From IMG/VR virus record IMGVR_UViG_2778261204_000005, positions 1-38,769 of that record: a DNA stretch of 38,769 nt; one strand, written 5' to 3'. The stretch is from a virus (lineage: Duplodnaviria > Heunggongvirae > Uroviricota > Caudoviricetes). Position numbers and translations under genes: made by a program. A model generated the notes under the pieces. That model saw only the letters and a program-made list of their open reading frames with translations, made no database searches and was not told where the DNA came from. This document shows, piece by piece, positions 1-37,761 of the stretch (position 1 is the stretch's first letter; every line of letters begins with the position of its first letter).

Positions 1-1248
1 ATGGCACTGAATATTCCATTCAGAAATGCGTACTATCGTTTTGCATCCAGTTACTCATTTCTCTTTTTTATTTCCTGGTCGCTGTGGTGGTCGTTATACG
101 CTATTTGGCTGAAAGGACATCTAGGGTTGACAGGGACGGAATTAGGTACACTTTATTCGGTCAACCAGTTTACCAGCATTCTATTTATGATGTTCTACGG
201 CATCGTTCAGGATAAACTCGGTCTGAAGAAACCGCTCATCTGGTGTATGAGTTTCATCCTGGTCTTGACCGGACCGTTTATGATTTACGTTTATGAACCG
301 TTACTGCAAAGCAATTTTTCTGTAGGTCTAATTCTGGGGGCGCTATTTTTTGGCTTGGGGTATCTGGCGGGATGCGGTTTGCTTGATAGCTTCACCGAAA
401 AAATGGCGCGAAATTTTCATTTCGAATATGGAACAGCGCGCGCCTGGGGATCTTTTGGCTATGCTATTGGCGCGTTCTTTGCCGGCATATTTTTTAGTAT
501 CAGTCCCCATATCAACTTCTGGTTGGTCTCGCTATTTGGCGCTGTATTTATGATGATCAACATGCGTTTTAAAGATAAGGATCACCAGTGCGTAGCGGCA
601 GATGCGGGAGGGGTAAAAAAAGAGGATTTTATCGCAGTTTTCAAGGATCGAAACTTCTGGGTTTTCGTCATATTTATTGTGGGGACGTGGTCTTTCTATA
701 ACATTTTTGATCAACAACTTTTTCCTGTCTTTTATGCAGGTTTATTCGAATCACACGATGTAGGAACGCGCCTGTATGGTTATCTCAACTCATTCCAGGT
801 GGTACTCGAAGCGCTGTGCATGGCGATTATTCCTTTCTTTGTGAATCGGGTAGGGCCAAAAAATGCATTACTTATCGGAGTTGTGATTATGGCGTTGCGT
901 ATCCTTTCCTGCGCGCTGTTCGTTAACCCCTGGATTATTTCATTAGTGAAGTTGTTACATGCCATTGAGGTTCCACTTTGTGTCATATCCGTCTTCAAAT
1001 ACAGCGTGGCAAACTTTGATAAGCGCCTGTCGTCGACGATCTTTCTGATTGGTTTTCAAATTGCCAGTTCGCTTGGGATTGTGCTGCTTTCAACGCCGAC
1101 TGGGATACTCTTTGACCACGCAGGCTACCAGACAGTTTTCTTCGCAATTTCGGGTATTGTCTGCCTGATGTTGCTATTTGGCATTTTCTTCTTGAGTAAA
1201 AAACGCGAGCAAATAGTTATGGAAACGCCTGTACCTTCAGCAATATAG
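1..1248 (+). CDS. cscB: sucrose permease, LacY-family oligosaccharide:H+ symporter (MFS)
   Basis: 415-aa ORF with about 12 hydrophobic segments and LacY-type motifs; recognised as CscB-like, and csc genes are known to lie beside argW in sucrose-positive E. coli. Confidence 0.8.
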   Translation: MALNIPFRNAYYRFASSYSFLFFISWSLWWSLYAIWLKGHLGLTGTELGTLYSVNQFTSILFMMFYGIVQDKLGLKKPLIWCMSFILVLTGPFMIYVYEPLLQSNFSVGLILGALFFGLGYLAGCGLLDSFTEKMARNFHFEYGTARAWGSFGYAIGAFFAGIFFSISPHINFWLVSLFGAVFMMINMRFKDKDHQCVAADAGGVKKEDFIAVFKDRNFWVFVIFIVGTWSFYNIFDQQLFPVFYAGLFESHDVGTRLYGYLNSFQVVLEALCMAIIPFFVNRVGPKNALLIGVVIMALRILSCALFVNPWIISLVKLLHAIEVPLCVISVFKYSVANFDKRLSSTIFLIGFQIASSLGIVLLSTPTGILFDHAGYQTVFFAISGIVCLMLLFGIFFLSKKREQIVMETPVPSAI

Positions 1249-1689
1249 ACGTAAACTTTTTCCGGTTGTTGTCGATAGCTCTATATCCCTCAACCGGAAA
1301 ATAATAATAGTAAAATGCTTAGCCCTGCTAATAATCGCCTAATCCAAACGCCTCATTCATGTTCTGGTACAGTCGCTCAAATGTACTTCAGATGCGCGGT
1401 TCGCTGATTTCCAGGACATTGTCGTCATTCAGTGACCTGTCCCGTGTATCACGGTCCTGCGAATTCATCAAGGAATGCATTGCGGAGTGAAGTATCGAGT
1501 CACGCCATATTTCGCTATCAGGATTCTGTGTGATGGTTACATCGCCCGGCTCAGGGCTGTTTAGTCATCAGCGCTTTCTGACAGTGCTGAGATTTCAACC
1601 TGTTGCAGTAAAAATGAGTAGATATAAGGCAAGTGTGCTGCCAAACCCATCTTTTACGGGGTGAAGGTAGATTTCGTTTGAAGGGTATC

Positions 1690-1704
1690 TGGTGTCCCCT
1701 GCAG
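1690..1704. repeat. attL core, direct repeat of the last 15 nt of tRNA-Arg (tggtgtcccctgcag)
   Basis: Exact 15-bp match to 37687..37701; position computed from torI stop codon. Confidence 0.75.
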
Positions 1705-1777
1705 ACATCGACTTGAGGCGGCAGGGGATTGATTGGAATGGTGTTTTTTAGATGTGAGAAATATTTTACCCGCTATT

Positions 1778-1978
1778 TTACCCATTGGCGCGGCTTAAGA
1801 GCTTATTTTTGAATTCACAATGGTCACGATATAACCATCTTGCTCGACCGTGGATAACTTTGGCTTTAGGCAGGTCGCCGGACTTAATCCGGTCGTAGAT
1901 GAAGGTTTTACCAAAGCCAGTATCAGCCATGATGAATTTCAAATCAACCAGTGAATCAGGTTGTAGTTCGTGTTGCAT
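1778..1978 (-). CDS. torI: excisionase / recombination directionality factor, TorI (AlpA/Xis family)
   Basis: 66-aa ORF recognised as TorI of the KplE1 prophage; sits at the attL end. Confidence 0.85.
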   Translation of the reverse strand: MQHELQPDSLVDLKFIMADTGFGKTFIYDRIKSGDLPKAKVIHGRARWLYRDHCEFKNKLLSRANG

Positions 1979-1997
1979 GAGTGCTATCTCCGAATAG

Positions 1998-2013
1998 GGA
2001 ATCGAACCTGCAA
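1998..2013 (-). repeat. second tRNA-Arg-derived fragment (ggaatcgaacctgcaa, T-arm segment) inside the prophage, just upstream of torI
   Basis: 16-nt identity to the tRNA segment immediately 5' of the attL core portion. Confidence 0.55.
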
Positions 2014-2020
2014 ATCAGGC

Positions 2021-2043
2021 AATAAAAAACCGCCATCAGGCGG
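2021..2043 (-). terminator. rho-independent terminator (CCGCC-ATCA-GGCGG plus U-run on minus strand)
   Basis: GC hairpin followed by TTTTTTATT on the minus strand, between orf103 and torI. Confidence 0.6.
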
Positions 2044-2086
2044 CTTGGTGTTCTTTCAGTTCTTCAATTCGAATATCGGTTATGTC

Positions 2087-2398
2087 TTATTCGATGCGTA
2101 CTCCTGGTATTTCGCCTTTTGATATTGCTAAGTCATAAATTTGCGCAGCACTATACCCATCTCGCATCCATGAATCTAAGGCGCGAATAGCCTCGCTACG
2201 CTTTTTATCTTCTCTCTCATTTTTGATATCAACGAGGACATCAACGCAATTAAGGCAAATGTGGATTTTGTCATTACATTCGATCATGGCGGCTTTACCA
2301 TGATTTCCGCCACACAGTGAGCATAAATCTTCAGGGTCTGGCTGGTATTTCTGTAACGTTAGATGGTTGAATGTTGAACAGACCATAATCATCTCCAT
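2087..2398 (-). CDS. hypothetical protein with Cys-rich zinc-ribbon-like motif
   Basis: 103-aa ORF with CSLCGG...CLNC motif; followed by terminator. Confidence 0.5.
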   Translation of the reverse strand: MEMIMVCSTFNHLTLQKYQPDPEDLCSLCGGNHGKAAMIECNDKIHICLNCVDVLVDIKNEREDKKRSEAIRALDSWMRDGYSAAQIYDLAISKGEIPGVRIE

Positions 2399-2572
2399 AA
2401 AACAAAACTCGCCGTAGCGAGTTCAGATAAAAGAAATCCCCGCGAGTGCGAGGATTGTTAGTTGCGCTCTGCTGCTGCCTTAGCCATTACCATATCCACC
2501 AAACTTCACCAGACATGATTCTCGCAATCACTATCATCACCAAAGTGATAATCACAACTTTAACTGGCGGCA

Positions 2573-3094
2573 TCATTCACCATCCTGCTGCGGTGCTGCT
2601 GGATATGCTTTTCTCATCCAATGCGTGGCGTCATGAATAACGAACTGATATTCATCATCAGTAAACATCGAGCCATCCCACTGTAGCCCGTCAAGAACGC
2701 CTCTGGATGGAGAGAATACCCAGATATCGAAATCGTATTTCTCCGGCATTCGCTCACTACAGCTTATCCAACCATCCGGAGTTACCGGAGAGTTGCCATT
2801 CACAAGGTCAGCTCGAACAAATAGCGTGTCATCATGGTGCTGATTGTGGCTGCACCACGTTAATTCGCTTAACTCGCCATCTTCTGGCCATACTCCAGCC
2901 GTTTGCAGCCAGATATGGGCTGGCGCATCCTGGCAAGGTGTATTAACTGGAAACTTGTAAGTTTGGCTTACAGGTTCGGCTTCCAGCGATGCCAGTGCAA
3001 TCCGTGCCAGTTCCATTTGTTCGCCACGGGTAAGTCCGTTTTCAAGCGGATTTTTAATGAACAATTCGATACGTTCTTTAGTGATAGTGCTCAT
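2573..3094 (-). CDS. DUF551-like phage protein
   Basis: Start moved to internal ATG (MSTITKER...) which has an AGGAG RBS and abuts the upstream gene stop; C-terminal region resembles DUF551. Confidence 0.6.
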   Translation of the reverse strand: MSTITKERIELFIKNPLENGLTRGEQMELARIALASLEAEPVSQTYKFPVNTPCQDAPAHIWLQTAGVWPEDGELSELTWCSHNQHHDDTLFVRADLVNGNSPVTPDGWISCSERMPEKYDFDIWVFSPSRGVLDGLQWDGSMFTDDEYQFVIHDATHWMRKAYPAAPQQDGE

Positions 3095-3095
3095 A

Positions 3096-3758
3096 TCACT
3101 CTCCTTTGATGCGAATGCCAGCGGCGCGCTCGGCTTTACTTTGTTCCCAAAACCACTTGTGAAGCTCCATAAGCTTTTCGTCAATCGGTGCATATTTGCG
3201 ATTAAAGTAGGCCTGAGCATCTTTCTCAGATTCGTCCGGCAATTCGCCTGGGCCAAACAGTGTGTTATAAATCCATGCCAGTCCGCTCTTAGCGTCGCCA
3301 GTTGCCTGCCATTCTATAATGGCAGCCTGCATGACCAGAATGTTTTTCCCGATTAACAGGTCCAGTTCTTTGAACCGGTTGCGGATGTATGCATTCTCGC
3401 TTTGTAATTTTGCGTTGCGCTTCTCTGCGGCTTCCAGCTCAACACGCAGCTTCCCTACCGTTAGCGCAATTTCCTCGTTCTCCTGGTCGCGTGATTTGAT
3501 GTATTGCTGGTTTCTTTCCCGTTCATCCAGCAGCGCCTGCACTACTTCAGGGTTGAAAGCTGCGATATAACGAGCGTTGTTCTCTGCGTTTTTCTGTTCG
3601 TCGAATCCTGGCCAGTCGACAATATCTCCGTGATGATTATCACCTGGTGTGTGTACGGCGTACGTGCCGTATTTGCCCGGCGAAATAAATGCGACCCATT
3701 CACCCTGTGTTGCCTTTTCTGCCGCATCACGTAGTGCCTGATAGTTAATCTTGCTCAC
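3096..3758 (-). CDS. Ead/Ea22-like early protein
   Basis: 220-aa ORF with coiled-coil centre, resembles lambdoid Ea22 family. Confidence 0.55.
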   Translation of the reverse strand: MSKINYQALRDAAEKATQGEWVAFISPGKYGTYAVHTPGDNHHGDIVDWPGFDEQKNAENNARYIAAFNPEVVQALLDERERNQQYIKSRDQENEEIALTVGKLRVELEAAEKRNAKLQSENAYIRNRFKELDLLIGKNILVMQAAIIEWQATGDAKSGLAWIYNTLFGPGELPDESEKDAQAYFNRKYAPIDEKLMELHKWFWEQSKAERAAGIRIKGE

Positions 3759-4225
3759 TGGTTGCCTCCTTTGCGAAGCTTCGCCGCAAAATCAGCCGCA
3801 ACCTCTTTGACCATATTGGATAGCGGAGTGCCACCTCCGAATTTTTCTGAGAACATCTCCACACCCTGTGCCCTCACTTCAGCCAGGAAAGCATCGGTGG
3901 CTGGGGTTTGTGGCATTCCTCCGTCCGTTGCGCAGATATACGCATCAGATATTTCATCCTGCTCGCCATCAAACACGTAGCAACTCTGTGCGATAAATTT
4001 ATTCAGCCCCGCATTCTCTGCCGCCAGCGCCGCGCACTTGGCCTCAAGGTTATCAATCGTGATTCCAGCAGAACGACACTCCCGCAACGCCGTTTCCAGT
4101 TTTGATTCAAGTTCACCGAACTTACGCACCAGATATTCAGCGTTTGTTTCGTTAACCTTTAAATCTCGGGGGATGCATTTACCTTTCAGGAATCCATCCA
4201 TCTCAATTAGTGACATTTGTTTCAT
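3755..4225 (-). CDS. Ead/Ea22-like early protein (second copy)
   Basis: 156-aa ORF, stop/start overlap with downstream gene. Confidence 0.5.
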
Positions 4226-4395
4226 TTCTTCCCACTCCGCAACATCGCATTCAGATATTTGTTGTCATTAACAGAACCGAAACTATTTCTCTTAAGCAAT
4301 TCCTCTCTCGATGGCATTGGCTTTACGCGTTGGCGAATAATCATTTCTGCCGGAAGAATGCCGGATTGTATGCAAGTCCTCTCATGGTAAATTCC

Positions 4396-4689
4396 TCAGT
4401 CATTACTGATAGCGCCATAGCGTGAGCGGTAATTACGCAGGCGCGGGTCAATTTCAGGGAAGTGGGTATATGTGGCTTTACGGAATGGTCGGATTGATGT
4501 CTGGTAAATTTGCTCGCGCTCTTCTTTCTCTGCAAGCCATATACAGTGGCGAAATTCCTTTTCCTCTTTCGTTTCCTGCGGTAGAGACATTATCCGGTCG
4601 TAGTTTTTTCTGAATTTATCCAGCACCTCCGATACGGAATTGCCGGAACAGCGGCGCACGTCGTCCGCACCATATAGAGGCGCTGGCAT
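4396..4689 (-). CDS. hypothetical early protein
   Basis: 97-aa ORF in early-left operon. Confidence 0.45.
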   Translation of the reverse strand: MPAPLYGADDVRRCSGNSVSEVLDKFRKNYDRIMSLPQETKEEKEFRHCIWLAEKEEREQIYQTSIRPFRKATYTHFPEIDPRLRNYRSRYGAISND

Positions 4690-4712
4690 AATGGGAGCCT
4701 TATTTTCAGTAA

Positions 4713-5300
4713 TCAGAAAGGAGGGTAATCGTTCTGGCTGTAACCATAATCATCTGCATGATTCTGGCTTACGTTTTTAGAGCGATTGTCTTTATCTTTG
4801 AGATTGGCAACCATGTTGGTGATAGTTTCTGGTTGCTTGCCTTCTGCCTTTTCTTTAAGGGTTTGACCTGTTTGTGCAATAAACGGGATGCGTATTTCCA
4901 TCTGGTAGCTGTCTGCGCCAGTCTTTTTGTTTGTGGTTAATACTTTCTGGAGCACTAACCCGATTTTCTTTCCATGAAATTCAGGTGCAACAAATTTACT
5001 GGCGGAAACCATATGCTGCGTTAATTGTCCAATCCCGGCACACCCCATCATGGCGTGAACGACATTTGCGCCAAATTTGTTTTCCGTTCCGTCATTTTTC
5101 TGAACACAGACGTTAAGATATTGGATTTTACGTCCGTCGTCGGATTCGCCAGAAAACTCAATAAATTTTGCTCCTTTTTCTGATTGCTTTAGTTCTGCTT
5201 CAGTAATGGTAATGATATGAGCGCCAGTTTCGTTAATAAAACCACCTTGCCCTGCGGTCAGTGCTGCTTCTTCGTTATAAGTAAAAATCACGTTGCTCAT
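4713..5300 (-). CDS. phage ssDNA-binding protein (DUF669-like partner of Sak4)
   Basis: 195-aa ORF overlapping the upstream Sak4-like gene by 4 nt; family assignment from recollection. Confidence 0.55.
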   Translation of the reverse strand: MSNVIFTYNEEAALTAGQGGFINETGAHIITITEAELKQSEKGAKFIEFSGESDDGRKIQYLNVCVQKNDGTENKFGANVVHAMMGCAGIGQLTQHMVSASKFVAPEFHGKKIGLVLQKVLTTNKKTGADSYQMEIRIPFIAQTGQTLKEKAEGKQPETITNMVANLKDKDNRSKNVSQNHADDYGYSQNDYPPF

Positions 5301-5977
5301 GCGGCGTTTTCCTTAATTTGATGAACATTATTGATGCCGTAGTAATCACAAACAGTGGCATCGACGAAAGAGAGATCGTTATCAATCTCATTGGAATCAA
5401 ACATTCCCATTGGGGATTTAACAGTGTCTGCACCGTTGTTTTTCGTGGTGAAAAAGAACTGGTCATCGTGGGTAAGAGTGCGAAGAACTATAGTAAACAT
5501 GCCTTCGACAGTGATTTTCTCGTCCAGCATTTTGCCGATAGTTTTCATTTTCACACGCCCCATAGGGGTTTCTTCGGTGTGCGCAAGAAAATAGACTCTC
5601 AGGTCATCAGGCGCATCCTGTGCAGCCTTAATGACCTCCCATGCGTGACGGCCTATCTCAGTGAATTTATCAAACGATTTTTCTTCTGAGCGGCGCATAA
5701 ACTCATTGCTCATCACATACTGGAAGTCATCAACAATAACGATTCTTTTCCCGTATTCGTGAGCACGCTTAATTACGGCAACTATTACGTCCCATTTGTC
5801 AGTGGTAACTACGGTTCCTTTTTTTTCTCTGGCGTCCCATGCAAGCCAGTCTTTTGATTTAAATGGTAGCGGCTTGCCTATTGGTTTTATAAGTATTGCT
5901 TCCTCTGGATTGATATTTCTCATGCTGGTTGATTTTCCGGTGCCAGACTCACCTAGTATTAATGTCGCAGTTCCCAT
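5297..5977 (-). CDS. Sak4-like RecA/Rad51-family recombination ATPase
   Basis: N-terminal Walker A GESGTGKST and overall Sak4-like pattern. Confidence 0.65.
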   Translation of the reverse strand: MGTATLILGESGTGKSTSMRNINPEEAILIKPIGKPLPFKSKDWLAWDAREKKGTVVTTDKWDVIVAVIKRAHEYGKRIVIVDDFQYVMSNEFMRRSEEKSFDKFTEIGRHAWEVIKAAQDAPDDLRVYFLAHTEETPMGRVKMKTIGKMLDEKITVEGMFTIVLRTLTHDDQFFFTTKNNGADTVKSPMGMFDSNEIDNDLSFVDATVCDYYGINNVHQIKENAA

Positions 5978-5985
5978 AATTCACC

Positions 5986-6186
5986 TCAGAATGGTAATTC
6001 GGATTGGGAGGAAAGAAACTCTCGCTCATTCATGCGCTCTCTTTGCGCCTGCCATAAGCAAAGTTGTTTCTTTGATTTATCTCCCGCTTTACGCCAGTAA
6101 CGAGCCTCAGCAATGTGATATTCTCTTTTTAATCGACTTAACTCTGGAGTTTTCGCCAGTTCTACCGGAATCATTTTGACCTCCAT
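5986..6186 (-). CDS. hypothetical small protein
   Basis: 66-aa ORF between kil and sak4. Confidence 0.4.
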   Translation of the reverse strand: MEVKMIPVELAKTPELSRLKREYHIAEARYWRKAGDKSKKQLCLWQAQRERMNEREFLSSQSELPF

Positions 6187-6284
6187 TTTCTGTAGGCTTC
6201 AACGGCCTCACGAAACATCTTTTCATCGCCAATAAAAGTGGCGATAGTGAATTTAGTCTGGATAGCCATAAGTGTTTTATCCAT
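6171..6284 (-). CDS. kil: host-killing protein Kil (FtsZ inhibitor), lambda-type
   Basis: Internal start MDKTLMAIQTKFTIATFIGDEKMFREAV matches lambda Kil; AGGAG RBS. Confidence 0.75.
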   Translation of the reverse strand: MDKTLMAIQTKFTIATFIGDEKMFREAVEAYRKWRSK

Positions 6285-6417
6285 TTTTGGGGACTCCTGG
6301 CTGATTAAGTATATCGATAAGGCGTTTCCATCCGTCACGTAATTTACGGGTGATTCGTTCAAGTAAAGATTCGGAAGGGCAGCCAGCAACAGGCCACCCT
6401 GCAATGGCATATTGCAT
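6277..6417 (-). CDS. cIII: CIII, FtsH protease inhibitor, lambda-type
   Basis: Hand translation gives MQYAIAGWPVAGCPSESLLERITRKLRDGWKRLIDILNQPGVPKNG (46 aa), matching lambda CIII; AAGGAG RBS; overlaps kil start as in lambda; not in the supplied ORF track because under 60 aa. Confidence 0.75.
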   Translation of the reverse strand: MQYAIAGWPVAGCPSESLLERITRKLRDGWKRLIDILNQPGVPKNG

Positions 6418-6489
6418 GGTGTGCTCCTTATTTATACATAACGAAAAACGCCTCGAGTGAAGCGTTATTGGTATGCGGTAACGCCGCGC

Positions 6490-6858
6490 TCAGGCGGCTT
6501 TGATAGTCATATCATCTGAATCAAATATTCCTGATGTATCGATATCGGTAATTCTTATTCCTTCGCTACCATCCATTGGAGGCCATCCTTCCTGACCATT
6601 TCCATCATTCCAGTCGAACTCACACACAACACCATATGCATTTAAGTCGCTTGAAATTGCTATAAGCAGAGCATGTTGCGCCAGCATGATTAATACAGCA
6701 TTTAATACAGAGCCGTGTTTATTGAGTCGGTATTCAGAGTCTGACCAGAAATTATTAATCTGGTGAAGTTTTTCCTCTGTCATTACGTCATGGTCGATTT
6801 CAATTTCTATTGATGCTTTCCAGTCGTAATCAATGATGTATTTTTTGATGTTTGACAT
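6490..6858 (-). CDS. hypothetical acidic phage protein (possibly DUF2528-like)
   Basis: 122-aa ORF; family guess from memory only. Confidence 0.45.
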   Translation of the reverse strand: MSNIKKYIIDYDWKASIEIEIDHDVMTEEKLHQINNFWSDSEYRLNKHGSVLNAVLIMLAQHALLIAISSDLNAYGVVCEFDWNDGNGQEGWPPMDGSEGIRITDIDTSGIFDSDDMTIKAA

Positions 6859-6876
6859 CTGTTCATATCCTCATAG

Positions 6877-6904
6877 ATAAAAAATCGCCCTCACACTGGA
6901 GGGC
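6877..6904 (-). terminator. rho-independent terminator (GCCCTC-loop-GAGGGC plus U-run)
   Basis: Hairpin followed by TTTTTT on minus strand upstream of the 122-aa gene. Confidence 0.55.
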
Positions 6905-7023
6905 AAAGAAGATTTCCAATAATCAGAACAAGTCGGCTCCTGTTTAGTTACGAGCGACATTGCTCCGTGTATTCACTCGTTGGAATGAATACACAGTGCA
7001 GTGTTTATTCTGTTGTTTATGCC

Positions 7024-7048
7024 AAAAATAAAGGCCGACTATGCGGCC
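7024..7048 (-). terminator. rho-independent terminator (tL1-like) immediately after the 140-aa membrane ORF
   Basis: GGCCG-loop-CGGCC hairpin followed by TTTATTTTT on minus strand. Confidence 0.6.
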
Positions 7049-7053
7049 TGAAA

Positions 7054-7476
7054 TTACTTAACCAATGATGCCGCATATTCAATTAGGAATAACTTAGGTG
7101 CAAGCAAAATCTTCAACCATTCGAAATTGAAGGCGATAATTAAAACACCCATAATTGAGCCAAATATAGGAACAAATACAGTGCATATATCGTAATAAAC
7201 CGAAGATATAAAATGTCCATCATTTGGACGTCCATCGAAAGACGTCCATCTCTCGCCATTATTTCTTGCCGTTCTTGCAAAACTAGGAAGTTTAATTGCT
7301 GCAATTAAAAGCAACAATCCAGCCACTTGGAAAAGTGCGCTATGGACAAAACTCCATATTAGCAACTGATGAACAACATCAGGAATCTGTGCCTGGCTAA
7401 ATGAAACAGCCGCGTCTATTCCATTGCTGGCTTTTTGCAGTAGTTCTACGAGAATCTTGTTTGCTTGTTCTTCCAT
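7054..7476 (-). CDS. small inner-membrane protein, candidate superinfection-exclusion/abortive-infection factor (SieB-position)
   Basis: 140-aa ORF with 2-3 hydrophobic helices, AT-rich, 9 nt downstream of N. Confidence 0.5.
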   Translation of the reverse strand: MEEQANKILVELLQKASNGIDAAVSFSQAQIPDVVHQLLIWSFVHSALFQVAGLLLLIAAIKLPSFARTARNNGERWTSFDGRPNDGHFISSVYYDICTVFVPIFGSIMGVLIIAFNFEWLKILLAPKLFLIEYAASLVK

Positions 7477-7484
7477 ATATCACC

Positions 7485-7784
7485 TCAAATAAGTGGTTTG
7501 CTGCCTAATTTCATTTTCTGGCGCCCAACACAAGTCACACCCATTTCGCTGCGTGGCTTGCGGTAGTAAATACGGTTCTGTTTACGCTCGACTTCTTCTG
7601 CCTTCTTGCAGCGAAGGCTTCCGAGTGATGCTGCTTTATCTGCTCTGACGCAACCAGAGAGCTTTAGCGCAATTTTTCGCGCCAGTCGCTGTTCTTGCAT
7701 TGCCTGTTCACGTTGAGCCTGTCTGCGTGCTCTGCGGCGATTTCTGGCGTTATCGTCAGCCAGATATGTAATTACTACTGTCAT
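7485..7784 (-). CDS. N: antitermination protein N (arginine-rich motif)
   Basis: Start moved to internal ATG with GGAGG RBS; N-terminal NARNRRRARRQAQRE arginine-rich motif; C-terminal half recognised as similar to N of phage 21/933W-type. Confidence 0.7.
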   Translation of the reverse strand: MTVVITYLADDNARNRRRARRQAQREQAMQEQRLARKIALKLSGCVRADKAASLGSLRCKKAEEVERKQNRIYYRKPRSEMGVTCVGRQKMKLGSKPLI

Positions 7785-7839
7785 GTTGACCTCCGATGAA
7801 ACAACTTTGGAATTGATAGTGATTGCAAAGTGGTTTCTG

Positions 7840-7869
7840 GCCCCTCGAACTGAGGGGCAGAAAGAGCAT
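7840..7869 (-). promoter_or_regulatory. nut-like element: boxA-like ATGCTCTTTCT followed by 7-bp-stem hairpin GCCCCTC-AGTTC-GAGGGGC, about 55 nt upstream of N
   Basis: Read on minus strand; no U-run so not a terminator. Confidence 0.4.
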
Positions 7870-8345
7870 CTCGCCACCTAATAGGTCAATGCTCGGATCG
7901 AGAGATTTAATTAACCTCGGTTTTGAAGTTATGCATTCACATAAATCCTCCTGTTGCATGTGCAGCATTGGCTGTGTTTGGCGGCTGCATTTCGCCTATG
8001 GAATTGACTTTGGCGGTGACGCGCCGGGTGCTTATCTTCCGGTTGCCGTCGTGCAGCTGCACTTCACGTCACCCCAAAGCCAACTACTCTTTGACTCACA
8101 CTCTCGCAGTGAGCGCGCCCATGCCATTGAGTCTCTGCCGCTTCATCGCCGCTGATAACCGGTGCGCGTCTGGCATTCGTGCTGCTTTACCGGAGCTACT
8201 TTTAATATATTGACCTTAACCCGATGCTAAGCAGGCTCGCTCAATGACGACTCAGGGCAGTATCATTACTGCTGCATTGCCTTTCGGCTGCGGTCTAACC
8301 GCGTTAGTGCACCATTACGGCACCTCCTGTTTGGTTAAACTCAGT

Positions 8346-8644: not shown

Positions 8645-8672
8645 AAAACCCGGCGCTGAGGCCGGGTGTTTT
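8645..8672. terminator. bidirectional rho-independent terminator (CCCGGC-GCTGAG-GCCGGG flanked by U/A runs)
   Basis: Ends the cI-orf98 transcript (minus strand) and insulates from plus-strand read-in. Confidence 0.6.
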
Positions 8673-8968
8673 TAGTCTTTTCTTTTGCTTAGCATTTCGT
8701 CGATTTCTAAGTCAATACGATATTGATCTATTGCTTTTCTCTCGTTTGGGGTTGGTATTTTATACTGTTCAATTAGATCTGTTGTGTATTTTATTTCATC
8801 TAATGTGATTTTTATATCAGAGAGAATCTCTTTTATATCAATTAGATGCTCTTCTTCTTTTGCGCGATTAGAGCTATGTTCAATCATTTGAGATAGCTTT
8901 TTGCTAATGCTTAGCAAAACAAAAAGAATGATGACCAAAACAACAACAAAAACTATCAGAAATTCCAT
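8672..8968 (-). CDS. AT-rich single-pass membrane protein co-transcribed with cI (rex-position moron)
   Basis: 98-aa ORF with N-terminal hydrophobic helix and charged coiled-coil-like tail; 40 bp downstream of cI. Confidence 0.55.
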   Translation of the reverse strand: MEFLIVFVVVLVIILFVLLSISKKLSQMIEHSSNRAKEEEHLIDIKEILSDIKITLDEIKYTTDLIEQYKIPTPNERKAIDQYRIDLEIDEMLSKRKD

Positions 8969-9008: not shown

Positions 9009-9716
9009 TTACCAACTATGAGACGACCAGAATACTCTGCCAATAATCCTTACGGTTTCATGAAATTCATCTCTATCCATTACTTCATCCGGGTACTCTT
9101 CGCGATTTATTGATCTGATTATCACCGATGTAGGGGTGGCGATTAATGTTTTTACTCGTAACAAATCAGACTGGCAAATAGCGTAGGTTTTACCATCTCT
9201 GATTGTGGTATCTTGCGTGTTAACACCAACAACATCGCCATCGTGAAGCGTTGGTTCCATGCTTTGCCCTACAACCCTAACTAGCTTGGCTGATCTTTCT
9301 GATACTCCCATCTTTTTCAGATAGTGCTTTCTGAAAACCAAAGAGAACTCCGATGATTCCTCTAGCTCGCAGCTACCGCTTCCAGCTGAAAGCGAAACGT
9401 TAAGAAGAGGCAACGCAACAAACTCGTCATCGTTTCTTTTAATGTCTTCCCATACCACAGCTTTTAAAGATGACTCACGGACATTGGATGGTTCTTCATG
9501 TGCACCATCCCTCATTTCACCAATACCAGAACTAAGCCATTCAGGACGCACTTTTAAAGCATTGGCTAATTCAACCATCTTGCGAGATCCGTTTGTTTTA
9601 CCGGACGACATCTTCTGTATGGCTGGCTGAGATATTCCAACCATGTCAGCAAGCTGTGATTGTGATACCCCTGCTGAGCTCATGGCTGCATTTAGTCTTT
9701 CTGCGAATGTTTTCAT
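9009..9716 (-). CDS. cI: CI-type prophage repressor (HTH plus LexA-like S24 peptidase domain)
   Basis: HTH (QSQLADMVGISQPAIQKM) and S24 motif GQSMEPTL with downstream Lys; start set at ATG MKTFAERL; the track ORF extends to 9746 from a non-ATG start. Confidence 0.8.
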   Translation of the reverse strand: MKTFAERLNAAMSSAGVSQSQLADMVGISQPAIQKMSSGKTNGSRKMVELANALKVRPEWLSSGIGEMRDGAHEEPSNVRESSLKAVVWEDIKRNDDEFVALPLLNVSLSAGSGSCELEESSEFSLVFRKHYLKKMGVSERSAKLVRVVGQSMEPTLHDGDVVGVNTQDTTIRDGKTYAICQSDLLRVKTLIATPTSVIIRSINREEYPDEVMDRDEFHETVRIIGRVFWSSHSW

Positions 9717-9728
9717 ACCCACAAATCT

Positions 9729-9791
9729 ATAACTACGGTTATCCAAAGTAAAATAACAAAGGTTATTGCTATTTTTTATAACTTGAGTTAT
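9729..9791. promoter_or_regulatory. OR operators (three 14-bp ATAAC-N4-GTTAT sites at ~24-25-bp spacing) with divergent PRM/PR
   Basis: ATAACTACGGTTAT, ATAACAAAGGTTAT, ATAACTTGAGTTAT between cI and cro. Confidence 0.7.
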
Positions 9792-10755: not shown

Positions 10756-11703
10756 ATGAGCAATACAGCAAAAATCTACGATTTCAGCGCCGCACACGAG
10801 CGCAGGAGCAACAGGATGGAGAACCAGAAAACTGGTTACATTCCGTTGTACCGGAGCATTCTGAAACAGTCATGGGCGAAAGATGTTTATCTTCGCACCC
10901 TGTGGGAAAACCTTCTCCTGAATGCCGCCAGAAAGCCATACAAAGCGAATTTCAAAGGTCATGAATGGCATCTGCAACCCGGTCAACTGGTTGTGACAGC
11001 AGCTGATTTAGGTCTTCAGTTATGCGACAGGCATGGCAAGCCAGCAAGCCGTGATCAGGTTGAGCGGATGCTTCAGGTTTTTGTGAAAGAGGGGATGATC
11101 TCCATTGATGGAGAGAAGCAAAAAGGTCGTGTGATAACCATCACAAATTACCATGAATATGCTCAAAAAATGGACAATTTACCCGCACATGAAGCCGCAC
11201 AAACAACCGCACATGATGCCGCACATGACGAAGACAGTAATGGCGCGGCTTTCAGCGCACATGCCGCACATGAAAGCGCACATGAAGCCGCACAAACAAC
11301 CGCACATCATGAACAAGAAGGTATTAACAAGAATATAAATAATACCCCCCTACCCCCCAATGGGGGAGGCGATGGGCAGGTTAAACCTGAACGTCGCAAG
11401 GCAGAACGAATCGACTACGAATCCTTCCTGAACGCCTACAACACCGAAGTCGGTGACAGACTGCCACACGCTGTTGCGGTCAACGAGAAACGCAAACGCC
11501 GCCTGAAGAAAATCATCCCACAACTGAAAACGCCAAACGTGGACGGTTTCAGAGCGTATGTCAGGGCGTTTGTGCATCAGGCCAAGCCGTTTTACTTCGG
11601 AGACAACGACACTGGCTGGACGGCAGATTTTGATTACCTGCTGAGGGAAGATTCGTTAACGGGAGTACGGGAAGGGAAGTTTGCAGACAGGGGGATTGCA
11701 TGA
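10756..11703 (+). CDS. replication initiator, O-like (ori iterons inside the gene)
   Basis: N-terminus [10 protein letters not shown] resembles lambda O MTNTAKILNF; internal repeated HEAAQTTAH peptide encoded by DNA iterons. Confidence 0.7.
11183..11345. repeat. origin of replication: tandem iterons (CCGCACATGA-type units) followed by an AT-rich stretch
   Basis: At least five directly repeated ~10-12-bp units inside the O-like gene, then a ~35-bp AT-rich segment. Confidence 0.65.
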
Positions 11704-37686: not shown

Positions 37687-37761
37687 TGGTGTCCCCTGCA
37701 GGAATCGAACCTGCAATTAGCCCTTAGGAGGGGCTCGTTATATCCATTTAACTAAGAGGAC
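37687..37761 (-). tRNA. argW: tRNA-Arg (anticodon CCU), argW-type; its 3' end is attR
   Basis: 75-nt cloverleaf read on minus strand: acceptor stem GTCCTCT/AGGGGAC, anticodon loop CT-CCT-AA, T-arm GGTTCGATTCC, 3' ACCA. Confidence 0.9.

Follow-up and report, generated by a model that had tools for sequence, protein, structure and literature searches.

The closest described relatives of the genes considered here come from P22, HK620, HK446, lambda and the Shiga toxin (Stx) phages. Pro68 of P22 Abc2 is placed in the active site of the host protein PpiB (PMC9836394), and abc2 of HK620 is counted within a Sak4-SSB recombination module (PMC5928155). Gp27 of HK446, called Oad2, binds P2 OLD, an ABC-ATPase/TOPRIM nuclease that is set off by RecBCD inhibitors, and keeps it from being activated; relatives of Oad2 occur fused to Ea22 (bioRxiv 10.64898/2026.07.10.737580). 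Lambda Ea22 forms a tetramer, its dimeric C-terminal domain is detachable, and the Stx-phage variants carry unrelated C-terminal domains (PMC10834534). Without ea22, lambda and Phi24B have a shorter latent period and a larger burst, fewer host cells survive, and lysogenisation is altered (PMC7093339). The lambda deletion mutants grow, and the protein is pro-lysogenic by these deletion phenotypes (PMC7093339). Here we describe a block of genes that includes relatives of Abc2, Oad2 and Ea22. It occupies positions 2087-4689 of a stretch of 38,769 nucleotides of Caudoviricetes DNA (IMG/VR record IMGVR_UViG_2778261204_000005, positions 1 to 38,769), which we call the window.

These positions cover the distal 'ea/exo-xis' part of the leftward (PL) operon, on the minus strand. 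The block is very probably a distal PL-operon segment, a mosaic string of small, coupled accessory genes without promoter-like sites of their own. On infection or induction, N-modified transcription would read through the tL-type terminators and express the block. Abc2 would redirect RecBCD, a 156-aa protein would neutralise an OLD-type sentinel that responds to RecBCD manipulation, and Ea22 would damp lytic development. The features of the block and its borders are given below in the direction of transcription.

5297-5977, minus strand: Sak4-like annealase (PHROG match), upstream of the Abc2 gene
4713-5300, minus strand: SSB-like gene (PHROG match), between the Sak4-like gene and the Abc2 gene
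4396-4689, minus strand: abc2, anti-RecBCD protein 2 (RecBCD hijacker), 97 aa (Pfam, PHROG, PDB)
4222-4385, minus strand: DUF2737 gene (HK620 hkaI / HK97 gp38 homologue), split (Pfam and HK620 alignment)
3755-4225, minus strand: 156-aa HK97 gp37 / P22 EaE / HK446 Oad2-family protein (BLASTP and PHROG)
3096-3758, minus strand: Ea22 orthologue, 220 aa, GTG start, with Ead_Ea22 domain, coiled coil and 933W-type C-terminal domain
2573-3094, minus strand: DUF551 (P22 EaA / YfdS-like) protein, 173 aa (Pfam)
2487-2576, minus strand: putative 29-aa hydrophobic open reading frame (ORF), MMPPVKVVIITLVMIVIARIMSGEVWWIW, its ATG overlapping the DUF551 stop, just before the tL4-like terminators
2405-2456, minus strand: tandem intrinsic terminators (hairpins 2456-2435 and 2424-2405, each with a T-run), between the 29-aa ORF and the zinc-protein gene
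2087-2386, minus strand: 99-aa zinc protein (933W L0063 / ST933Wp03 homologue), with a likely N-terminal ClpX-type C4 domain and a C-terminal helical part
2027-2046, minus strand: intrinsic terminator (8-bp GC-rich stem and T6), downstream of the zinc-protein gene and directly upstream of the PI-type promoter
1985-2023, minus strand: PI-type (integration) promoter, by homology with HK620 feature 1664-1702 (offset 321)
2010-2022, minus strand: cII box TTGCCTGATTTGC, transferred from HK620 feature 1689-1701 through a 97.7% alignment
1778-1978, minus strand: torI (excisionase / TorR inhibitor), identical to HK620 hkaC, the downstream boundary of the block

Seven reading frames lie in 2087-4689, all on the minus strand, and all except one are intact (6/7). 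They are transcribed in the order Abc2, split DUF2737, 156-aa protein, Ea22, DUF551 and 29-aa ORF, followed by the tandem terminator and the 99-aa zinc protein. The DUF2737 and 156-aa genes meet in an ATGA overlap, the 156-aa and Ea22 genes in a GTGA overlap, and the DUF551 gene and the 29-aa ORF in a further ATGA overlap. Ea22 and DUF551 are joined as TGA-T-ATG, with the DUF551 ATG at 3094, 1 nt past the Ea22 stop. These junctions indicate that the block genes are translationally coupled, with the zinc-protein gene set apart by the terminator. A sequence-only reading had placed five ORFs here, tightly packed with overlapping stops and starts, between the recombination module and torI. The five do exist on this strand at these positions, have strong family matches and are not chance frames, and the packing is as it was described. 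The DUF2737 gene and the 29-aa ORF had been missed, and the upper border was drawn in the wrong place: the 97-aa gene is abc2 and belongs inside the recombination module. The label of a non-essential 'b2/ea' region was right as to an early-left accessory region, which is however 'ea/exo-xis' and not b2. A DUF551-like protein was correctly named (Pfam PF04448, 9e-10). Of two proteins called Ea22-like, that at 3096-3758 holds (Ead_Ea22, 1.4e-34), but the 156-aa protein falls in the HK97 gp37/EaE/Oad2 family. A Cys-rich gene with its own terminator is present, with the hairpin and T-run at 2046-2027; its product, given as 103 aa, is most likely 99 aa from the ATG at 2386, and the gene is also preceded by the tandem terminator at 2405-2456.

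A scan of 1250-6500 found no promoter-like sites on the minus strand in 2087-4689. Over the scanned region it returned 3 promoter-like sites, against 8.8 expected from shuffles. The RNA of the tandem terminator folds at −25 kcal/mol (z = −6.0), and a tL4-like sequence also lies directly upstream of L0063 in 933W-type Stx phages. The terminator at 2046-2027 is weaker (−13 kcal/mol, z = −2.5). It is part of a 393-nt block that is 97.7% identical to HK620 1369-1761, and in HK620 this shared cassette contains the cII-activated integration promoter. The whole block is probably made only from N-antiterminated PL transcripts, because terminators are present, no promoter matches were found and the arrangement is homologous to that of annotated phages.

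The similarity to HK620 in the ea region is concentrated at gene boundaries (2942-3128 and 3709-3760), while the gene interiors have been replaced. The first boundary joins the Ea22 tail AGIRIKGE to the DUF551 N-terminus, and the second joins the tail LRKGGNQ of the 156-aa protein to the start of Ea22. This is the classic junction 'linker' pattern that mediates mosaic exchange.

The 97-aa protein matches Pfam PF11043 (Anti-RecBCD_p2) over its full length (1-97/97) at 3.9e-62, with 206.9 bits against a cutoff of 25. It falls in PHROG 656 ('abc2 anti-RecBCD'), and 87 of its 97 residues are identical to the P22 Abc2 chain of PDB 8B1T/8B1U (1.4e-56 for 8B1T). Pro68 of P22 Abc2 is conserved. The Sak4-like and SSB-like genes stand directly upstream, in the same layout as in HK620. 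On these matches, the 97-aa protein is Abc2, a member of a Sak4-SSB-Abc2 recombination module. It would bind RecC and make of RecBCD, otherwise a phage-degrading nuclease, a resection machine for the phage Sak4/SSB recombinase. This conversion of RecBCD is demonstrated for P22 Abc2, and the approximately 90% identity suggests that it extends to the window protein.

The 156-aa protein is 56% identical to HK446 gp27 over its full length (176 columns, 1.8e-59). The identities in the same BLASTP comparison are 61% with HK620 HkaH ('similar to HK97 gp37') and 60% with HK75 gp28; with proteins annotated as EaE in P22-like Salmonella phages the identity is 68%. It falls in PHROG 614 (6.9e-55). Searches with this protein gave no Pfam match (Ead_Ea22 included), no NCBIfam match and no meaningful single-sequence PDB match. 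BLASTP matched it neither with lambda Ea22 nor with the product of the adjoining Ea22 gene. We therefore ruled out an Ea22-like identity, as neither Pfam Ead_Ea22 nor lambda Ea22 is matched. The order abc2, DUF2737, gp37-like gene is common to HK446, HK75, HK620 and the window, and the first 74 residues are near-invariant among the four proteins. We measured 54% identity between HK75 gp28 and HK446 gp27. This equals the figure that the preprint gives for the HK75 homologue, which fits the gene assignment. The Gp33 protein of HK446 and HK75, a trigger of OLD, showed no similarity to the hkaM-like ORF at 5986-6186.

The central and C-terminal parts of the 156-aa protein have been replaced. Stx phage TL-2011c has a module 100% identical to residues 77-154, and a stretch annotated within the Ea22-like genes of P13374 and phi191 matches residues 77-121 at approximately 89% identity. 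In PHROG 368, an Ea22-like N-terminus is joined to the C-terminus of the 156-aa protein. Together with the P13374/phi191 stretch, this agrees with the Oad2-Ea22 fusions of the preprint. By sequence, the membership of the 156-aa protein in the Oad2 family is solid. It would bind and block an OLD-type ABC-ATPase/TOPRIM nuclease and so cover the liability made by Abc2. Homology and synteny suggest that the protein is probably of this OLD-blocking type. That it in fact inhibits some OLD-family nuclease we put forward tentatively, as somewhat less than an even chance, and we rate inhibition of P2 OLD itself lower. The variant may act on an OLD-family (or related ABC-ATPase/TOPRIM) defence other than P2 OLD, with the swapped modules setting the specificity.

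The 220-aa protein matches Pfam PF13935 at 1.4e-34 (120.1 bits against a threshold of 27). Its first 124 residues, the N-terminal and coiled-coil part, align with residues 1-85 of lambda Ea22 (BLASTP, 3e-22), and sequence comparison shows the C-terminal tail AGIRIKGE in both proteins. The identity to 933W Ea22 is 63% overall, C-terminal domain included (1e-107). The C-terminal domain occurs in 1323 clusters of prophage proteins, and nearly all of the listed named ones are ead/Ea22-like. A single-sequence PDB search at E<=1 returned no match, the lambda C-terminal domain included. We propose that Ea22 would be an oligomeric coiled-coil protein (tetrameric in lambda and P27) that slows lytic development through its variable C-terminal domain and favours lysogeny. 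From the lambda and Phi24B deletion phenotypes, this lysogeny-favouring role is probable by analogy.

The PADLOC model PDLC02890, named 'DpdH', matches residues 109-210 of Ea22, that is, the end of the coiled coil and the C-terminal domain, at 4.3e-37. We rejected a DpdH identity, since the gene is an Ea22 gene in a phage PL operon, and among the listed named homologues none is DpdH and nearly all are ead/Ea22-like. Our literature search found nothing that ties the model PDLC02890 to the dpd (7-deazaguanine) cluster. The model is probably mislabelled; otherwise it would point to a link between an Ea22 C-terminal domain and the Dpd system.

The last gene of the block encodes a small cysteine-rich protein, which we call the zinc protein. 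Its start is most likely the ATG at 2386, because a GGAG lies 7 nt upstream, the homologues and the PGAP/RefSeq annotation begin there, and in the 103-aa version the PHROG match sets in at residue 5. The protein is 96% identical to 933W L0063/ST933Wp03, is carried by many Stx1 and Stx2 phages and falls in PHROG 3680 (1.3e-68). The family is small, with 30 representatives at E<=1e-3 among 1.84 billion proteins. More distant homologues (31-53% identity; Enterobacter prophages and one metagenomic prophage) also stand upstream of xis/int, from which a few genes separate them, at the integrase-proximal end of the early operon (at 4001-4315 in loci L019/L020 and 5001-5330 in loci L002-L005). All of these keep 'PDP' directly before the first cysteine.

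Residues C22, C25, C44 and C47 are invariant in the family and form a CxxC-x18-CxxC pattern that aligns with C14, C17, C36 and C39 of ClpX. These ligands and their flanking motifs are kept across genera. Alone, the protein gives weak ClpX matches, at E 0.0015 with TIGR00382 and E 0.026 with PDB 2DS7; NCBIfam gave nothing for the block proteins beyond such weak ClpX matches. A family profile built from 21 single-domain members retrieved seven ClpX sequences from the PDB, from 2.3e-7 (1OVX, the E. coli zinc-binding domain, ZBD) to 5.6e-3. The same profile gave no non-ClpX match down to 5.6e-3, and the next match was at 0.07. By hhalign, the family aligns with E. coli ClpX 1-78 at 96.9% probability over ClpX residues 14-54. 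Pfam zf-C4_ClpX is matched by 17 of 23 family members and remote relatives (best 1.1e-32). The positions of ClpX F16 and I46 are hydrophobic in the zinc protein (L24 and I54). In ClpX, these two residues form a hydrophobic patch used by lambda O, SspB, RssB and trigger factor (PMC7804408). The AlphaFold2 model of the zinc protein (19 sequences) has a mean pLDDT (predicted local distance difference test score) of 67 and approximately 50 over the zinc site; its C-terminal half is confidently helical. The fold is argued from profile comparisons only, because the structure route failed. We consider it likely from these comparisons that the protein has the ZBD fold.

The zinc protein would then be a free-standing module like the ClpX N-domain, binding proteins as the ClpX ZBD binds adaptors and substrates. 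By analogy, its activity is most likely protein-protein binding. A ZBD-like protein may engage the partners of ClpX or ClpX itself. A mimic of the ClpX ZBD could retune ClpXP early in infection or induction, through heterodimers with ClpX N-domains or by sequestering ligands such as SspB, RssB or the phage O-type initiator. For example, it might stabilise the O-like replication protein encoded at 10756-11703. We regard such a mimic as a rather unlikely refinement of the binding role. In the literature that we searched, the ClpX-N-domain likeness of the 933W L0063 family was not found described.

A rival for this gene is a small DNA-binding or transcription regulator, unrelated to ClpX, that is a positional analogue of lambda Ea8.5. 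The zinc-protein gene is xis-proximal like ea8.5, which only orf55 separates from xis. Ea8.5 is also small and contains zinc, in a hybrid homeodomain/zinc-finger fold (PMC8614690), and the helical C-terminal half of the zinc protein would suit such a regulator. The sequences speak against it. The zinc protein has no similarity to Ea8.5, and no Ea8.5-homologue structure in the PDB matches at E<=10. Its zinc ligands are N-terminal with the exact ClpX spacing, and the profile retrieves only ClpX chains. We therefore hold the regulator to be unlikely, with a small but real chance, and prefer the ClpX-type fold. As candidate homologues, lambda Ea8.5 and orf55 were rejected (no BLASTP similarity), and so was Phi24B gp05 (vb_24B_3c; PMC8614690), an unrelated winged-helix protein.

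The T-tract of the second tL4-like hairpin leads almost straight on to the Shine-Dalgarno sequence and start codon of the zinc-protein gene. This leaves almost no room for a promoter of the gene's own, and the gene is therefore not a moron. As a moron candidate it has the terminator at 2046-2027, but no promoter-like site.

The 173-aa protein matches Pfam PF04448 (DUF551) at residues 108-161, at 9e-10 and with 39.7 bits against 22. In an alignment of 25 relatives, its modules 1-41, 42-99 and 100-173 recombine independently. There are at least 7655 related clusters. A 227-aa, TTG-start frame in the ORF list at this locus is an artefact. A single-sequence PDB search with the protein gave nothing meaningful. 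We know of no function for the DUF551 family beyond the phenotypes of yfdS deletion. Deletion of yfdS, the DUF551 homologue of CPS-53, causes H2O2 sensitivity, as cited in passages of PMC4776307 and PMC10834534. The 29-aa ORF that overlaps the DUF551 stop has a mean Kyte-Doolittle hydropathy of 2.6 over residues 5-21. Its frame is open in five related loci despite substitutions, which are conservative, and despite differing upstream DUF551 C-termini. It is without annotation in RefSeq or phage records and could be a small membrane peptide.

The DUF2737 gene is broken into frames of 14 aa (4341-4385) and 40 aa (4222-4344), which meet at ATGA. The lesion is a 1-nt deletion relative to HK620 (CCC to CC, near 4362). 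Pfam PF10930 is matched at 1.5e-19 (70.1 bits), covering only profile positions 15-53. There is no intact full-length DUF2737 domain at the locus, as the deletion puts the N-terminus out of frame. The identical deletion is present in the independent Logan assembly SRR3971252. Re-initiation might still yield the 40-aa C-terminal part. No mechanism is supported for DUF551, DUF2737 or the 29-aa peptide, and an anti-defence role for DUF551, DUF2737 or the zinc protein is pure conjecture.

Several observations weigh against parts of this account. The N-dependence of the block is argued from terminators, promoter absence and homology with annotated phages. The DUF2737 gene is frameshifted, so some block genes may be non-functional. 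The HK75 homologue, 54% identical to Oad2, does not inhibit P2 OLD (bioRxiv 10.64898/2026.07.10.737580). The window protein, at 56% identity, may likewise fail against P2 OLD, and its middle and C-terminal parts differ from those of Oad2. The C-terminal domain of Ea22 differs from the lambda domain solved by nuclear magnetic resonance (NMR). Alone, the zinc protein scores 15.5 bits with PF06689 (zf-C4_ClpX), below the cutoff of 27 (E 0.016). The zinc region is modelled poorly, and a Foldseek search of the model against the PDB gave no match. The AlphaFold model of the DUF551 protein is unusable (pLDDT 47).

Three other explanations of the block as a whole were weighed. The sequence-only reading took it as five uncharacterised genes, all of them host-takeover or anti-defence factors, with none assignable to a function. 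The type of region was right, and two genes, abc2 and the Oad2-family gene, do have counter-defence links: Abc2 (anti-RecBCD) is present, with an Oad2 homologue adjacent. No function was found in the families matched by DUF551, DUF2737 and the zinc protein, which leaves space for such roles, although for these genes they are conjecture. Recombination-adjacent loci have been called a likely reservoir of anti-immunity genes (bioRxiv 10.64898/2026.07.10.737580), and this view too counts for the all-anti-defence reading. However, Abc2 is well characterised, with known structure and biochemistry, and the published deletion phenotypes of Ea22 (PMC7093339) concern the lysis-lysogeny balance and not defence evasion. 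The remaining proteins belong to named families. Abc2 and Oad2 are the only known anti-defence families among the block proteins, and a PADLOC scan gave one doubtful match only. The reading was also mistaken in the number of genes and in two family assignments. That every gene is a takeover or anti-defence factor is thus quite unlikely.

Alternatively, the block could consist largely of neutral mosaic cargo that a resident prophage retains through linkage and recombination, not through selection for function, and that is beginning to decay. The DUF2737 frameshift is what decay would produce, and it is present in a second assembly too. In related E. coli prophages, many DUF551, Abc2 and DUF550 genes at the position of the block are partial or pseudogenes. 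No complete E. coli genome carries at least 80% of window 1-6500 in one place, and lambda ea22 is dispensable. Against these points, 6/7 frames are intact and the coupling junctions are preserved. The families are very widespread (at least 7655 DUF551-protein clusters and 1323 clusters with the Ea22 C-terminal domain), the functional residue P68 of Abc2 is kept, and the Cys ligands and flanking motifs of the zinc-protein family are invariant across genera. The remainder of the prophage looks complete. We therefore regard neutral cargo as very unlikely.

Finally, it is highly improbable that some of the genes are lysogenic-conversion 'morons' active in the repressed prophage and of benefit to the host, like YfdS of CPS-53 in oxidative-stress tolerance: the H2O2 phenotype of yfdS deletion (cited in passages of PMC4776307 and PMC10834534) and the moron-like bracketing of the zinc-protein gene by terminators speak for it, but the scan found no sigma-70-like promoter on the coding strand of the block, the T-tract of the upstream terminator leaves almost no promoter space before the zinc-protein gene, and all other block genes are translationally coupled within the PL transcript.

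We prefer the distal PL-operon segment described above, and its setting is that of a lambdoid prophage. By alignment with phage HK620, attP-core junctions lie at 1690 and 37701, and the integrase, torI, most head and tail genes, the early-left arm and the att core are HK620-like. The host element is an HK620-like, P22-type (Lederbergvirus-type) prophage, 1690-37701, integrated at argW and apparently complete. In related genomes the torI counterpart bears the RefSeq name 'response regulator inhibitor TorI'. Over 6094 nt (positions 507-6600), the window and the Logan assembly SRR3971252 are 100% identical. CII-, O- and DnaB-like genes lie on the strand opposite to the block. The cIII start region of the prophage is marked by a thermometer RNA at 6372-6430, outside the block and the sole match of the Rfam scan. 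Further features of the window are the following.

1-1248, plus strand: host oligosaccharide/sucrose-type major facilitator superfamily (MFS) permease gene, at the window start
6372-6430, minus strand: Rfam Lambda_thermo (cIII translational thermoregulator), full length, 88.5 bits against a gathering score of 50
6490-6858, minus strand: PHROG 646 gene, 122 aa, between cIII and N
7054-7476, minus strand: PHROG 3054 gene, 140 aa, with hydrophobic segments, between cIII and N
7485-7877, minus strand: N-like antiterminator, upstream of the block
8672-8968, minus strand: 98-aa ORF, PHROG 18389, directly downstream of the cI-like repressor, GC 0.36-0.39
9009-9746, minus strand: cI-like repressor, upstream of the block
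37687-37761: tRNA-Arg(CCT), near the window end

Approximately 440 nt (1249-1690) separate the host permease gene from the prophage att core. In APEC O2-211 the equivalent of this segment is annotated with a DUF4942 fragment, which suggests the remnant of an earlier element at argW. The GC content is 0.37-0.39 around 6800-7400, at the genes between cIII and N. HK620 carries another gene at this position, a putative superinfection-exclusion gene on the opposite strand. The genes at 6490-6858 and 7054-7476 are possible exclusion or defence cargo. The position downstream of the repressor in lambdoid prophages often holds co-transcribed defence genes.

Overall, the block is an ordinary, highly mosaic lambdoid ea region in which every module is common. 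Much of it was known already: Abc2 is textbook material, the function of the Oad2 homologue was reported in 2026, and the Ea22 phenotypes are published. That an Oad2-family gene lies two genes downstream of Abc2 fits a recent idea, by which phage antagonists of RecBCD come together with inhibitors of those defences that respond when RecBCD is inhibited. With its modular variation, the Oad2 family supplies a series of natural variants for the study of specificity. The zinc protein of 933W, VT2-Sakai and many Stx phages, so far 'hypothetical', can be described as probably ClpX-N-domain-like, which is a modest advance in annotation. This likeness gives a concrete, testable hypothesis on phage control of ClpXP. 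The frameshifted gene, the hydrophobic ORF, the tL4-type terminator and the start codons are corrections that improve how a very common prophage region of E. coli is annotated.

The comparison with known systems can be made gene by gene. Abc2 has the same length as P22 Abc2 (97 aa), shares Pro68 with it and matches the Pfam family over its full length. It differs by ten substitutions, mostly C-terminal. It is partnered with Sak4 and SSB, as in HK620, whereas P22 Abc2 is partnered with Erf/Abc1/Arf. HkaJ of HK620 occupies the same slot, directly downstream of the recombinase/SSB pair. The 156-aa protein shares a 14-aa motif and the LRKGGNQ tail with Oad2 (HK446), HkaH (HK620) and HK75 gp28, but its middle and C-terminal segments are swapped relative to HK446 gp27, HkaH and HK75 gp28.

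Ea22 resembles lambda Ea22 in its Ead_Ea22 N-terminal domain, coiled coil, tail, GTG start and exo-xis/ea position. It does not have the lambda-type C-terminal domain of known NMR structure. Its C-terminal domain is that of Ea22 in the Stx phage 933W, and with 220 aa it is without the insertions found in 933W Ea22 (257 aa). The DUF551 protein has the C-terminal DUF551 domain with the GNSPVTPDGWISCSERMP...THWM motif, as in P22 EaA, YfdS and the 933W L0140 type. It has the N-terminal MSTITKERIELFIKNPL module in common with HK620 HkaE, and differs from HkaE in its middle module and its DUF551 subtype.

The hairpin region at 2405-2456 is 96.7% identical to tL4 of HK022 (record X51962, feature 'tL4 terminator') and 88% identical to the annotated leftward terminator of phage 434. 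Both of these likewise lie between the ea genes and the xis-proximal cassette. Unlike them, the tL4-like element of the window is followed by the zinc-protein gene. The zinc protein has the CS[FL]CG and IC..CVDL motifs in common with the ClpX ZBD (PDB 1OVX, 2DS5-8). With 99 aa, no AAA+ module and no P-loop, it is ZBD-like and not a ClpX. Beyond the ClpX ZBD it has a conserved YQPDPEDL stretch ahead of the domain and, at the C-terminus, a helical extension that closes with G(K/E)IP..RI(D/E). Like 933W L0063, which is the last gene before xis/int and is preceded by a tL4-like terminator, its gene closes the operon behind such an element. Unlike that of 933W, the gene is joined to a torI/IntS (KplE1/HK620-type) integration module, where it replaces HK620 eaG (hkaD), the gene of a different small Cys-rich protein.

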